From positions 83,917 to 147,916 of IMG/VR virus record IMGVR_UViG_3300019886_000004: 64,000 bases of DNA; one strand, given 5' to 3'. Source of the stretch: a virus. The translations under genes and the position numbers were made by a program. How positions within the stretch are numbered: the stretch's first letter is position 1; each line of letters starts with the position of its first letter. The notes under the pieces were generated by a model. It made no database searches. It saw only the letters and a program-made list of their open reading frames with translations, and was not told where the DNA came from. This document shows, in pieces, positions 19,988-60,650 of this stretch.

Positions 19988-20725
19988 TTAATCTTTTAAT
20001 ATAAAAAAATTATCAGATTTTGAAAGACAATCTGTAAAGATAACAGTAGGACCTCCTTTATGTTGATATATTTCTATATCATTTACTTGATTATGACCCA
20101 CAATATGATTAAACCTGTGTACACAACCGTCTTTCTTTATTTCAGATGTATCAGCCCACATAATTCCTCCAATAGATCCCGCTACACCTCCTCTTATTGT
20201 AGGCACTGTATTTAATATCCATTCATCATGTGAGTCGTTAATTGCATTGAGTAATACATCAAGGTTATTTCTTTTATCTATACCCAGCTTTTCTTCATAG
20301 TATGATAATCTATCATTATATCTGTACAACCAATCAGATAGAATACCGGCATGCGTACACATATAATTACCATTTAACCATGCTACCTGAAACATTTCTC
20401 TATTATCTCTGAACAGTTTATATAAATCTGGCTGCAGTTCTGCTCTAAATCCACTACAACGATAAGCTGGAGAATGTATATATTGTTGGTCATGATTTCC
20501 TAATAAGCAAATAACTTTATTAGGATTTTTCTTTTTATAACTTATAACTTGTTCCAGTAGATATTTAATTTCAATATTCGTACAATTAAAAGAATCCACA
20601 TAGTCTCCCATGAAAACTATTTTATCCAATTTATCTCTTTCAAACATCTCAATGGCCCTTTCAAAATGGTATATTCTCCCATGTAAATCTCCTACATGTA
20701 GAGCACTAAACTGAAGATTCTTCAT
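19988..20725 (-). CDS. Calcineurin-like metallophosphoesterase
   Basis: GDLHG, GDYVD, GNHD, HAG, GHN. Confidence 0.9.
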   Translation of the reverse strand: MKNLQFSALHVGDLHGRIYHFERAIEMFERDKLDKIVFMGDYVDSFNCTNIEIKYLLEQVISYKKKNPNKVICLLGNHDQQYIHSPAYRCSGFRAELQPDLYKLFRDNREMFQVAWLNGNYMCTHAGILSDWLYRYNDRLSYYEEKLGIDKRNNLDVLLNAINDSHDEWILNTVPTIRGGVAGSIGGIMWADTSEIKKDGCVHRFNHIVGHNQVNDIEIYQHKGGPTVIFTDCLSKSDNFFILKD

Positions 20726-21069: not shown

Positions 21070-21704
21070 CTATTTGTTTTTATTTATATCTATTACCGAA
21101 TCACCTACTCCACCAGTAATAGGTATCTTTTCTAATTCTAATATAATCTCCCCTATAGAATAAGGATAAGAAAGTGTTCCTCCTTTATCTATTCCAACAT
21201 CTATTTTTCTACCAGGTCCAATTCTGCTTGAATGTTGATGTCCAAATAAATGAAACCATCCTTTAAATGTACCCATCCAACTCTCTAATGGATAGTGATC
21301 CAATATGAAATTATAGTTACCATATTCCAAATGAGTTCTATCACTGACAGATGTGAAGATGGATTGTATATTCTCCTTATTACTTTCAATATGATGGTCG
21401 TGATTTCCTAAAAGCAAATGTATGGTTTGACAATATATTTGATCTCTAAATCTTTTTATATTTTCAAAACCACCAAAACTCCAGTCTCCTAAATGAAACA
21501 ATATGTCATTCCACCGGACAAAATTGTTAATCCTTTTTACCAAATCTTGATCGTGTTCTTCCAATGATTTGTAGTCTCTACATATACTTTTATCCTTCCA
21601 TTTAGAGCATGATCTAACTATATTTGAATGACTAAAATGTGTTAAGTGTCCGCAAGAAACCAAATGTTATGATCATCTTGCGGACTTAATTTTATGTGTT
21701 TCAT
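21070..21704 (-). CDS. Metallophosphoesterase interrupted by a 5-nt gap (recoded gene or pseudogene)
   Basis: ATG 21704 gives MKHIKLSPQDDHNIWFLADT-stop; another frame continues HFSHSNIV..HLGD..GNHD..HYP..FGHQH; skipping 21644-21640 restores the DTH motif. Confidence 0.75.
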
Positions 21705-45738: not shown

Positions 45739-48328
45739 AGTCTTTCTCTTATTTCAGACAAACTCTGATCTTTTATGAGCTTTCCGTCCTTGAACACAAT
45801 CTCCAGCGCTCCTTGCTTTTCTTGATCCCAAGTTTGTTGATCATGTAAAATGTAAGTACCGTCTTTCTCTTCTACTCGAAGAAGTCCTTTTGCACTCTTT
45901 TTAGTTCCATCATCTGTTATTGGATCTTTATAGATTTCATGAGGAGTTTTCTTCGTAATAGTGATATCATCTTCGTGCTCTTCATCCTCAAGTATTTCTA
46001 CATACGTAGCTTTTAATGCCAACCCCAGTGAATCCCTCGTATTCATTTGATAGGTGAATGCTTAATTTAAGTATTCTAATTTTATAGGTAATATATTTTC
46101 TGTAAATAATTCTGTTGACCACCTAAAGAATGTTCTTTTATCTTTATATTTTTCTAATATTTCTTGTTCTTTTTTGAAACAATTATATAAGGTATCTTCC
46201 ACACTCCATAAGATGTCAATAGATTTTATAAATCCATTTGACTTTGATTTTATACCGGCTATTCTTTTCTTTAGAGAACTTGCTATGCCAATTTTATATA
46301 ACCTTCCGTTGTTTATGGAAAGATAATATAAATTCACTAATTTATATTTTAATTTCGGTTTATTTTGAAATAAGCTTTCACAATATCCTCCAATTAAAAT
46401 ATTTTTCTTTATTAGATCCTTAATTCTACATTTAAAACAGCCTTGTCCTGCTAAATGTTTTTGAGCGGATTTTACAAATTCACCATGTTCACTACAAATA
46501 ATTCTAATCTTAGATTTTCTATTTTTATAATCTTCACATATGTATTCATATTTATTATTATGAATAATATTTGCCTTTTCTAAAAAGTTTTGAAAATCTT
46601 TGGTTTTAGACTTATTTTTGCTTTCTAATCCGCATTTTTTACATCCTGTTTTACATTGCCGTAAAATGAGATTTCGTGGTGACTGCTCAAATTCTCCATG
46701 TATTGGACAAAACACTTTTATTTTATTCCCCGTAATACCCGACCAATTAGAAAAATCAAATGTGAACTTATTACCATATTTTTCGTAAATTTTCTCTAGA
46801 TATTGCTCTACTGATTTACGACTACTATAATACTTCAAATTTTGGACTATATCATTACCTTCAGCATTATCTGTTAAGGTAGGCACCGCTTCGGAAATTT
46901 CTTTCCTACTCTCTTTCGAGATAGTCTCTGAACGTTCAAGGATATTTCTATCCAAGCTTCGCTGCTGATTTTCTATTTTTATATCTTGCATGATATAAGA
47001 TAAGTAAAAAATCCAAAAATACCAAATTTATTTTTGATAATTTTAGAACTTTTACCTATCAATAGGGTTCCAGCAATTCAATGCCTTTTTTCAATATAGA
47101 TTTCTCTATAAGGGGGCCATTATGTTAACCCTACACCAAATACTATATTAGAAGACGCAAAGCCCTTAGATTTAAGTCTTTCTAAGATTTCCCTCGCTCT
47201 CTCTAAAGTGATAGAATCACCATAAATAGCTCCAATGTGTGGATCAAGGACCTTATATCCCTTCTCGTTAGTGGTTCCACCAAAAACATCCCAGAGAAGT
47301 TCTATAACACCTTTTCCTATTGAACTTAATTTTTCAAAATCTTCTTCGCCAAAATTTAATACAATTTTTTCTCCTGTTCCACAAATAATATCTATAGGAT
47401 CACCTGAGTCAGGACGAATTACTACCTTACCATCTCGTGCAAGAATTACATCTTTTAGTTCAGTTAAATACTCAGTGCAAACCTTCCAAAGGTCCCATGT
47501 GTCAGATACAATTGAAATGATACCTGACGGGAAGACATTTTGAATTAAGTCTTTAAAGCTTTCTAATTCACCCATTTCAGCAGCATTTACACACATAATA
47601 CTGTGTTCTGTAGCTGGTACAGACGTCCCAACTAGTTCTTTCTTGATATCTGCATCATAATACTCTTGTAAAAATAATATGGCAGGTATAGTATCTGTAC
47701 CAACAAAACTTAATAAATGGCCAGCACCCGATGTCATAGATGTTTCTACTGAAGAATAACCTCGTTGGGCAAAATCATGTGCTTGAAATTGTATAAATCC
47801 TTTATCAGCACCTGTCATTTCAGCAAAATTATTTAGTAATTTTCTGTACTCAAGAGCTATAGTAGCTGTTGTGCACGGACTCCAAATAACATTACTTAAA
47901 CAAGTCTCAAGGAAATTTACCAACCATCCAAATCGTGGTTCAGTATTCTTAATAGTTAAGCAGGGAACTCTCATAGGAACTAAACTACCTTCGGGAAGAG
48001 CTTTAATTTCGAGTGGTAAATGACCTAAGTCATGCAAGTCCTTTATGTGCTTTATTTCTACTTCTTTAGTACCTAATGTTAAGGTGATGAAATGTGCGTA
48101 ATTAACTATAACCTCTTCTATGGGCTTTTTAAAGAATAACTCGTCCCATTGGTTGATCAAATATTCTTTGATAAAATATTGTAATCCAAAAAATACCATT
48201 TTCTCTACACCAGGTATTCTACTTTTACGTGGAGTTAAGTTTGAATATAGTAAGGTCATATTCGGAGAGTACATTAGATGGTGCGATTGTTTATAAAAGT
48301 CGCTATTAAGCAGTGGATTTATTCTCAT
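45720..48328 (-). CDS. nadV: Nicotinamide phosphoribosyltransferase-like enzyme (NAMPT/Namat), spliced join(48328-47128, 46060-45720), 513 aa
   Basis: DFYKQSH, HDFAQRG, VPATEHS, VSDTWD, IRPDSGDP, IYGDSIT; splicing restores NIVFGVGSFTYQMNTRDSLGLALKAT. Confidence 0.9.
46062..46991 (-). CDS. Intron-encoded homing endonuclease (two Zn-finger repeats plus a GIY-YIG-like domain)
   Basis: CPIHGEF..GCKKC, CSEHGEF..GCFKC, LYYL..LYKIGI..RI..E. Confidence 0.75.
   Translation of the reverse strand: MQDIKIENQQRSLDRNILERSETISKESRKEISEAVPTLTDNAEGNDIVQNLKYYSSRKSVEQYLEKIYEKYGNKFTFDFSNWSGITGNKIKVFCPIHGEFEQSPRNLILRQCKTGCKKCGLESKNKSKTKDFQNFLEKANIIHNNKYEYICEDYKNRKSKIRIICSEHGEFVKSAQKHLAGQGCFKCRIKDLIKKNILIGGYCESLFQNKPKLKYKLVNLYYLSINNGRLYKIGIASSLKKRIAGIKSKSNGFIKSIDILWSVEDTLYNCFKKEQEILEKYKDKRTFFRWSTELFTENILPIKLEYLN
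46995..47026 (-). promoter_or_regulatory. Intron-internal promoter for the endonuclease
   Basis: TTTG-N20-TATCTTAT, with ATG 46991 after a 3-nt gap. Confidence 0.6.
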
Positions 48329-60574: not shown

Positions 60575-60650
60575 TGGAGCCTGAAAACGGGATCGAACCG
60601 ATAACCTCTTGTTTACAAAACAAACGCTCTACCAATTGAGCTATACAGGC
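60575..60650 (-). tRNA. tRNA-Thr(TGT) with encoded CCA
   Basis: GCCTGTA-TA-GCTCAATTGGTAGAGC-G-TTTGT-TTTGTAA-ACAAG...TTCGATC...TTCAGGC-TCCA. Confidence 0.9.

Follow-up and report, generated by a model that had tools for sequence, protein, structure and literature searches.

A recurrent five-nucleotide coding gap that begins with a stop codon suggests programmed ribosome hopping in a phage metallophosphoesterase gene

How can an enzyme be made from a gene whose reading frame is closed by a stop codon in the middle of its first catalytic motif? The question is raised by a metallophosphoesterase (MPE) gene on the minus strand of a 64,000-nucleotide (nt) stretch of viral DNA, positions 83,917 to 147,916 of the IMG/VR record IMGVR_UViG_3300019886_000004, which is called the window below and is numbered from its first letter. 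An earlier note, made from the letters alone, had proposed that ribosomes hop over this stop. Here, we describe the interrupted locus and its relatives, and we consider it likely, judging by sequence comparison, that the interruption is crossed by a programmed +5 hop of peptidyl-tRNA-Thr over the stop codon. This interpretation of the earlier note is supported by the recurrence of the gap, by the invariant presence of a stop, by a +5 triplet that is able to pair with the same anticodon and by a co-varying stem upstream.

The locus consists of two open reading frames (ORFs) that lie in different frames; all its coordinates refer to the minus strand. ORF1 (21645-21704) runs from an ATG to the presumed take-off codon and has 20 codons (MKHIKLSPQDDHNIWFLADT), which encode strand beta-1 and the motif-I Asp; its ATG at 21704 overlaps the stop of an upstream gene of 152 amino acids (aa) in the sequence TAATG. 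The last codon of ORF1, ACT (21645-21647), specifies the Thr of a D-T-H motif and is followed at once by an in-frame TAA (21642-21644), which would stand in the A site at take-off. The coding gap, TAACA (21640-21644), thus comprises the stop and two further bases, and its last three bases, ACA (21640-21642), form the proposed landing triplet at +5, which overlaps the stop. Decoding would resume at CAT (21637-21639), the codon for the His of D-T-H. From 21639 on, CAT TTT AGT CAT (HFSH) continues the enzyme in a frame that differs from that of ORF1 (-1/+2), and the remainder of the gene, ORF2 (21070-21639), contains 189 codons and a stop (21072-21070) and encodes the motifs GDWSFG, GNHD, DHYP and GHQH. 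When the five nucleotides 21644-21640 are omitted, ...W-F-L-A-D-T-H-F-S-H... is read, D-T-H is restored and the predicted product is 209 aa long. Both the arrangement described in the earlier note (a 20-residue ORF ending in D-T, an immediate TAA, and an overlapping ACA followed by HFSH) and the rebuilding of the full-length enzyme by a +5 join were thereby confirmed from the sequence. The peptide encoded by ORF1 in frame 0 resembles the N-termini of intact homologues, e.g., MRHMKISPREDQNIWFTADTHF of P0005 (here and below, L and P numbers denote loci and proteins fetched in this analysis, and WIN denotes the window allele). The sequence containing the five nucleotides is identical across the site in an ENA assembly (ERZ27268022, L165) and in a Logan assembly (SRR7026236, L206), both of which may derive from the same reads as the source of the window.

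The motifs of the two ORFs give good grounds for regarding them as a single gene for a 209-aa calcineurin-like metallophosphoesterase that would be decoded discontinuously. ORF2 matches PF00149 (calcineurin-like metallophosphoesterase) with 24.3 bits against a gathering cut-off of 21.5 bits, and the invariant columns of the family are G52 D53, G79 N80 H81 D82, H116 and H135/H137. The whole MPE motif set (D-x-H, GD, GNH(D/E), H, GH) is found, with motif I complete only after the +5 join. In the nearest solved relative, Aquifex aq_1665 (1xm7), FISDTHFYHENI is aligned to FTADTHFSHSNL of the family, and this alignment identifies D-T-H as motif I, in which one residue separates two metal ligands. 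A second, uninterrupted metallophosphoesterase of 245 aa (PF00149, E = 4e-15) is encoded at 19988-20725 (minus strand), two genes or 350 nt downstream, and this pair of metallophosphoesterase genes is syntenic in the relatives L163, L202 and L203.

Comparison with relatives showed that the gap and the hairpin are both kept in very different phage lineages: 29 distinct alleles (that of the window and 28 others) carry the same 5-nt gap at the same codon, in the form ...GAY-ACN-stop-NN-CAY.... The gapped relatives range from 61-65% identity (L001, L002) through ~47% (L118, L132, L205) to other MPE subfamilies. An initial protein search returned intact homologues of 200-215 aa together with three gene calls that start out of frame, as does the ORF of the window (P0008, P0011, P0036). 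At the site, the DNA reads GAC ACT TAG CT CAC in L001, GAT ACT TGA TT CAT in L002 and GAT ACT TAA CT CAC in L205. Two further gapped loci, L118 and L132, were present among 160 loci fetched by protein similarity alone, and no interruption of any other kind was found in these 160. In all of the ~155 intact loci, which were located by tblastn and not by pattern, D-T-H is encoded without a spacer, as it is in 1xm7. A DNA pattern that an intact gene is unable to match retrieved 25 IMG/VR stretches, and all 25 proved to be phosphoesterase genes, of several subfamilies, reading ...D-T, stop, 2 nt and then H-(F/Y)-x-H-x-N-I.... Two control scans were made with GAC and TAR fixed, so that GAT alleles and TGA stops lay outside their coverage. 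When the five gap bases were left free, 30 stretches were found, 21 of them true MPE genes with a stop as the first gap triplet in every case (21/21), and the other nine (L191-L199) were chance matches with no downstream ORF; with the take-off codon unconstrained, only one new allele appeared, L200, with GAC TCC TAG CT CAC. None of the 29 gapped alleles contains a further stop or frameshift in either half, their frame-0 N-terminal peptides keep (W/F/Y)-x-x-(S/A/G)-D-T, and the ratio of nonsynonymous to synonymous substitution rates (dN/dS) of the gene bodies is 0.09-0.19. In the output of gene callers, these genes are split or truncated (P0001, P0008, P0011, P0013, P0036).

The codons at the gap follow simple rules. 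At the take-off position, ACT is found in 16 alleles, ACC in seven, ACG in five and TCC in one, i.e., Thr is specified in 28 of the 29. All three stops are used (TAA 17, TAG 8, TGA 4), and the two bases after the stop are CT in 20 alleles, CA in three, TT in three, CG in two and CC in one. The +5 triplet is ACT in 14 alleles, GCT in six, ATT in three, ACA in three, GCG in two and ACC in one; it conforms to R-Y-N in 29/29, which means that each of its positions is able to pair (Watson-Crick or G.U) with a Thr anticodon, 3'-UGN-5'. Compared to the take-off triplet of the same allele, it is synonymous or identical in 18 cases and near-cognate (GCN or AUU) in 11. In contrast, full pairing with the Thr anticodon is not possible at the -1 triplet (C/U-A-C) or at the +2 triplet (N-U-R), where one or two positions at most can pair. 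The codon ACA is never used for take-off in the gapped alleles (0/28) vs 29 of 121 intact alleles (24%); the naive probability of this avoidance, which ignores the relatedness of alleles, is ~5e-4, and the avoidance might mean that the P-site tRNA has to be held weakly. The tRNA-Thr(UGU) gene that the earlier note had reported was confirmed at 60578-60650 (minus strand). Its product, a possible hopping tRNA, is cognate for the landing ACA and would read the take-off ACU only by U:U wobble; the phage may use this tRNA in the hop.

The second conserved element is a stem directly upstream of the take-off codon. In the window, its 5' arm (GTCCGCAAGA) occupies 21676-21685 and its 3' arm (TCTTGCGGAC) 21648-21657, the last three bases of the latter being the Asp codon GAC (21650-21648). 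The minimum free energy (MFE) of the stem is -21.0 kcal/mol vs -6.95 +/- 2.43 kcal/mol for shuffled sequences (z = -5.8; 0/200 shuffles fold as well). The earlier note had described a 14-bp stem that ends exactly at the stop; the stem itself stands, as a conserved 10-bp core whose end is at the Asp codon, with one codon between it and the stop, while the TTAA/TTAA extension of 4 bp across an AC bulge appears in some folds only and is not conserved in relatives. A take-off (A-site) stem-loop that includes the stop was therefore not found, the TTAA/TTAA extension being missing from most relatives. The resemblance to T4 gene 60 that the note had pointed out likewise holds for the take-off codon, the stop, the landing triplet and the stem and fails for a stem enclosing the stop, since the stem lies 5' of the take-off codon. 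All 29 gapped alleles and four of 124 distinct intact alleles possess a stem in which 6 bp or more, four or more of them G.C pairs, are formed and the 3' arm stops at a distance of 0-1 nt from the Asp codon's final base; the anchor was relaxed in this way because pairing that had to begin exactly at the third base of this codon overlooked stems that end 1-2 nt earlier and gave too low a count for the intact close relatives. In the 63 nt upstream, the median MFE is -19.8 kcal/mol for gapped and -4.2 kcal/mol for intact alleles.

The two arms co-vary. Pairs were tabulated from the base of the stem because MAFFT could not align the 5' arms owing to the variable length of the loop. Position 1 from the base is G-C in 17 alleles and A-T in seven, following GAC vs GAT; position 5 is G-C in 27 and C-G in two; position 6 is C-G in nine, A-T in 14 and G.T in six; position 7 is G-C in 18, A-T in five and C-G in three; and position 8 is G-C in 22 and A-T in four. 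Since the loop varies from 5 to 44 nt and the 5' arm thus falls in different codons in different alleles, it is the pairing and not the peptide sequence that appears to be selected. Conservation is strongest in the bottom five pairs (G-C, U-A, C-G, C-G, G-C), and five bases is also the length of the proposed step. The residues before take-off (W-F-x-S/A-D-T, in a peptide of 15-32 aa) are conserved as well; they are also residues of the enzyme, and a constraint from a nascent-peptide signal in the exit tunnel is inseparable here from that on the enzyme. A common 3' arm, CACCUCGGAC (e.g., in L172, L173, L184 and L200), resembles the 3' tail of 16S rRNA, which contains …CACCUCC…, and its partner arm (…CCGAGGUG) is for this reason Shine-Dalgarno-like. 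The stem of the window itself (GUCCGCAAGA) is not Shine-Dalgarno-like.

Taken together, these elements suggest how a hop might proceed. The ribosome would translate 20 codons until ACU (Thr) occupies the P site and UAA the A site. Termination at UAA would be slow, the stop being followed by C, which is a weak termination context in E. coli. At this moment the 3' arm of the stem would adjoin the P-site codon on its 5' side, within the E site and the exit channel, with the 5' arm already outside the ribosome. The stem would then zip up at the mRNA exit and, as its completion needs forward movement of the mRNA, would pull the mRNA along. The peptidyl-tRNA-Thr would unpair from ACU and re-pair 5 nt downstream at ACA, and decoding would restart at CAU to yield ...F-L-A-D-T-H-F-S-H... 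with the D-x-H metal site intact. The driver role given here to the stem has a counterpart in T4 gene 60, where pairing of the mRNA leaving the ribosome was assigned a forward "driver" role (10.1101/2024.12.09.627546), and a conserved stop or rare codon follows the take-off codon in that gene, too (10.1101/2022.08.31.505936).

The sequences also point to the way in which such a gap could arise: it appears to be the 3' seam of a mobile cassette that comprises the 5' coding piece, the stem and the gap. The allele L205 (1-1071) is a mosaic, in which a 66-nt 5' piece is 91-94% identical to gapped L118/L132 and ~63% identical to intact L029/L158, whereas the body is 85-87% identical to intact L029/L158 and 66-67% identical to L118/L132; because the two parts match different alleles, the recombination boundary is placed at the 5-nt gap. 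In L118/L132, synonymous divergence (dS) is 0.14 in the N-terminal part vs 0.76 in the C-terminal part, and the cassette, whose 5' piece is far less diverged, must thus be younger there than the gene body. Endonuclease-type genes (relatives of the upstream ORFs) stand beside 15 of 29 gapped and one of 124 intact alleles, a comparison that is partly circular, as the query proteins were taken from gapped loci. The ORF directly upstream is of the LAGLIDADG type in L183, L186, L175 and L189, bears NUMOD3 in L118 and L200, is TnsA/PD-(D/E)XK-like in L171 and belongs to DUF723/treble-clef proteins in L177. In other phages, then, the cassette often seems to be accompanied by a homing endonuclease that is encoded in a free-standing gene, and its carrier is probably protected by the gap from cleavage by this endonuclease. 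The only intact allele with a LAGLIDADG-like match nearby is L027 (IMGVR_UViG_3300033066_002434), which might be a freshly invaded target or might neighbor an endonuclease with a different seam. A hairpin-guided insertion of the IS200/IS605 type, prompted by the gap region TTGAT of L002, was considered and rejected, since the gap sequence varies and no transposase is present.

In the clade of the window, the endonuclease appears to be absent and the gap to persist alone. No endonuclease was found beside the gap in the window, L001 or L002, and the flanking genes are the same as those of intact L163. On the tree, which is a quick one with support by the Shimodaira-Hasegawa-like approximate likelihood-ratio test (SH-aLRT) only, the state of the gap changes at least 13 times, and at least eight of these changes are forced by well-supported branches. 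The clade of the window contains eight members, five of them intact, and all eight keep the stem or a remnant of it; an ancestral gap followed by several later losses is for this reason the simplest history, and it would mean that the gap was kept through saturated synonymous divergence. Indeed, the three alleles without an endonuclease (WIN, L001 and L002) keep the gap at saturated dS with dN/dS of 0.09-0.18.

Several observations weigh against a hop. Most gapped alleles came from a pattern that presupposes the anatomy, and unbiased protein searches gave only WIN, L001, L002, L118, L132 and P0036/L205. The take-off and landing codons differ in the window (ACU and ACA). The low dN/dS of the gene bodies is by itself no proof of selection after the arrival of the gap, because the cassette is younger than the body in L118/L132. 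Finally, the stem is not exclusive to gapped alleles, as it is kept by intact L163/L164, L201, L202 and L203, which are exactly the nearest relatives of the window, and therefore another role for it is possible; in these alleles, where it ends at the Asp codon or 1-2 nt before it, the stem may be left over from a gap since lost or may point to a second role. The arms of the stems of these intact relatives read GTCCGCGG/CCGCGGAT (L163:1501-1600), TCCGCAG/CTGCGGA (L201:294-390), CCGAGG/CCTCGG (L202:238-330) and CAGAGGAG/CTCCTCTG (L203:1201-1300).

The same observations have to be set against other explanations, among which the loss of the enzyme comes to mind readily: the five nucleotides may be the scar of a selfish (or lost) cassette that is not read across, in a gene that is dead or dying. 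The lability of the gap on the tree, with its 13 or more changes, the horizontal movement of the cassette seen in the mosaic L205, the endonuclease-type genes that flank 15 of the 29 gapped alleles, the five intact members of the eight-member clade, as if the gap were being purged, and the presence of a second intact metallophosphoesterase 350 nt downstream would all be in line with such a scar. We consider it improbable nevertheless, as neither half of any of the 29 alleles has acquired a further stop or frameshift, the replacement N-terminus brought by the cassette retains beta-1 and the Asp, conservation of the gap length, of the stop, of the R-Y-N triplet and of the stem contrasts with divergence around them, and WIN, L001 and L002 maintain the gap with no endonuclease at saturated dS (dN/dS 0.09-0.18). 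Alternatively, two polypeptides may be made, a 20-aa peptide that ends at TAA and a remainder of 190-197 aa that starts separately (TTG 21663) or by re-initiation and works alone or in complex with the peptide. A TTG does lie eight codons ahead of the His in the downstream frame, and gene callers annotate the gene in this way (P0001), but the candidate NTG is a by-product of the Trp codon (N-TGG), 11 of the 29 alleles have no ATG, GTG or TTG in the downstream frame before the motif-I His, and a separate product would miss the motif-I Asp. A pair of polypeptides, which would explain neither the position of the stem against the take-off codon nor the constant length of 5 nt nor the R-Y-N triplet, seems extremely unlikely to us.

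A full-length product could also be obtained by a one-step frameshift, which would place one or two extra residues in motif I: -1 at ACU-U would give D-T-L-T-H, and +2 would give D-T-T-H. The downstream frame is indeed the -1/+2 frame, and the -1 reading would add Leu or Val plus Thr, Ala or Ile in all alleles, which is chemically mild. The site sequence in the window, G GAC ACU U, lacks a slippery heptamer X XXY YYZ, however, and permits no -1 re-pairing; the tRNA-Thr would face C/U-A-C at -1 or N-U-R at +2, with no more than one or two positions paired, whereas it can pair at all three positions at +5 in 29/29 alleles; and exactly one residue separates D from H in ~155 intact homologues and in 1xm7. 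These facts make a frameshift improbable, too. Still less credible is the view that the five nucleotides are absent from or removed in the nucleic acid itself, be it by RNA excision, in a subpopulation of genomes, through an assembly or sequencing error, or as a one-off template-switch or intron scar. It gains something from the three agreeing assemblies, which may share reads, and from a group I intron with an endonuclease-like ORF elsewhere in the genome. Yet the same gap is present in 28 other alleles from independent samples and assemblers, the base before it is U in 16 alleles and C or G in 13, contrary to any group-I 5' splice-site rule, and a private mutation or error would not recur with three different stops; moreover, we know of no mechanism for the excision of 5 nt from mRNA. 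The alternatives that the earlier note had left standing lose ground on the same evidence: a template-switch mutation at a quasi-palindrome is argued against by recurrence in 29 alleles with three stops, an assembly error by recurrence in independent samples and assemblers, and an intron scar by the C or G that precedes the gap in 13/29 and by Rfam, which places an intron only at 46825-47136.

The proposed +5 hop shares properties with several recoding systems. The translational bypass of a 50-nt gap in phage T4 gene 60 was reportedly described by Huang in 1988. In both genes, take-off of the peptidyl-tRNA occurs next to a stop and is followed by landing on a codon that the same tRNA can read (an event that is inferred here), a 5' stem-loop forms behind the ribosome, and the gap lies at the seam of a mobile cassette that is accompanied by a homing endonuclease in many relatives and by none in some alleles. 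The differences are equally clear: the gap is 50 nt there and 5 nt here, which makes the stop overlap with the landing triplet; a conserved take-off stem-loop around the stop, a Shine-Dalgarno element in the gap and a demonstrable nascent-peptide signal (only ~20 residues are made) are not seen here; and the gene encodes a topoisomerase there and a metallophosphoesterase here. The association of gene 60 with a MobA homing-endonuclease cassette, including endonuclease-free "hit-and-run" alleles, was described in a preprint (10.1101/2022.08.31.505936), which does not mention phosphoesterases. The cassettes considered here come with varied endonucleases of other families (LAGLIDADG, NUMOD3-type, TnsA-like, DUF723), none of which stands beside the gene of the window.

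Short hops over a stop have precedents in artificial constructs. According to the account given in a review (PMC5009743), Weiss, Dunn, Atkins and Gesteland in 1987 obtained synthetic +5 and +6 stop-hops in E. coli, at a low level and with no stimulators, and the same 2016 review of recoding wrote that stop-hops were not known from nature and that the existence of shorter natural equivalents of gene 60 had been presumed for a long time (PMC5009743). The event proposed here would be of the same kind, a short forward hop over a stop between codons that pair with the same anticodon, with +5 among the distances described. What sets the present site apart is that it occurs in nature, is conserved and comes with a stem whose arms co-vary. 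The prfB gene for release factor 2 (RF2) uses a +1 frameshift at a "shifty stop" with overlapping codons, which is driven by Shine-Dalgarno:anti-Shine-Dalgarno pairing and tuned to RF2. The two sites have in common a stop in a poor context (followed by C) in the A site and a 5' element in the mRNA exit region that pushes the ribosome forward (as proposed here); in our case the step would be +5 and the 5' element an intramolecular stem, and the use of all three stops means that there is no release-factor-specific feedback. Candidate bypasses of 10 nt were also described in the terminase gene of Streptomyces phage Hau3, where a rare UUA serves as a trigger, the effect depends on the stage of the host, one phage group is concerned and mass spectrometry was heterologous (PMC10732093). 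Both this gene and the present one are phage genes in which a short coding gap goes together with a slow codon in the A site, a stem-loop proposed on the 5' side and a codon for landing; here, the trigger is a stop, the gap is 5 nt and the case is built on broad comparative data. Our literature search found no published report of bypassing in a phosphoesterase gene or of a natural "stop-hop".

For decades, translational bypassing rested on one elaborate natural bacterial case, T4 gene 60. A natural 5-nt stop-hop in dozens of diverged phage genes, if true, would be a far simpler system in which to define the minimal needs of a hop, apparently no more than a stop, a triplet for re-pairing and a hairpin on the exit side. 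With its three stops, its several landing triplets, its many stems and its loops of 5-44 nt, natural variation already provides a series of mutants. If hopping does occur, functional enzymes are being recorded as fragments in annotations, and, the gap being the seam of a mobile cassette, recoding becomes linked to the biology of homing endonucleases. A more far-reaching view, which we put forward tentatively and hold to be somewhat less probable than its negation, is that a minimal portable module, in which the stem is followed by a Thr codon, a stop and an R-Y-N triplet, would be enough for an efficient +5 hop on the ribosomes of very different bacteria, from Bacteroidota to Proteobacteria, with no nascent-peptide signal or A-site hairpin; that it arose repeatedly, each time as the self-protecting seam of a homing-endonuclease cassette unrelated to the others; and that it is an orphan in the phage described here, served by the phage's own tRNA-Thr(UGU), which would move from the wobble-read ACU to the cognate ACA.

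The genome that carries the gene is a single contig of 147,916 bp with 31.7% GC and tRNA genes for Thr(UGU) and Arg(UCU). The closest cultured phages that have this enzyme infect Flavobacterium and Cellulophaga and are 145-160 kb in size, and for this reason the host is likely a member of Bacteroidota. A blastn search with the locus gave no match among GenBank phages. No gapped allele was identified among cultured phages: Moby and Hena1, which were inspected since their matches showed two annotated features, and Flavobacterium phage immuto, the nearest cultured relative, are all intact. A genome-wide scan for other sites with a stem, a codon, a stop and a shifted ORF found none besides this one in the 148-kb genome. 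The same scan also gave a 15-bp hairpin at a gene end at ~5867 of the window (minus strand; genome 89783) and, at the start of a gene at ~63890 (minus strand; genome 147806), a tandem repeat of the TGGCTATGGC type, both of which look ordinary. The group I intron at 46825-47136 (minus strand), the only intron found by Rfam, lies inside a NAMPT-like gene. Directly downstream of it, a long ORF (~46419-46814, minus strand) encodes zinc-finger repeats and a ...YKIGIA... motif, and its product is 36% identical (E = 7e-14) to that of the DUF723-type endonuclease-like ORF upstream of the gapped gene in L177. By this similarity, the L177-type DUF723 endonuclease-like family appears to be present in this genome, at a locus other than that of the gap.

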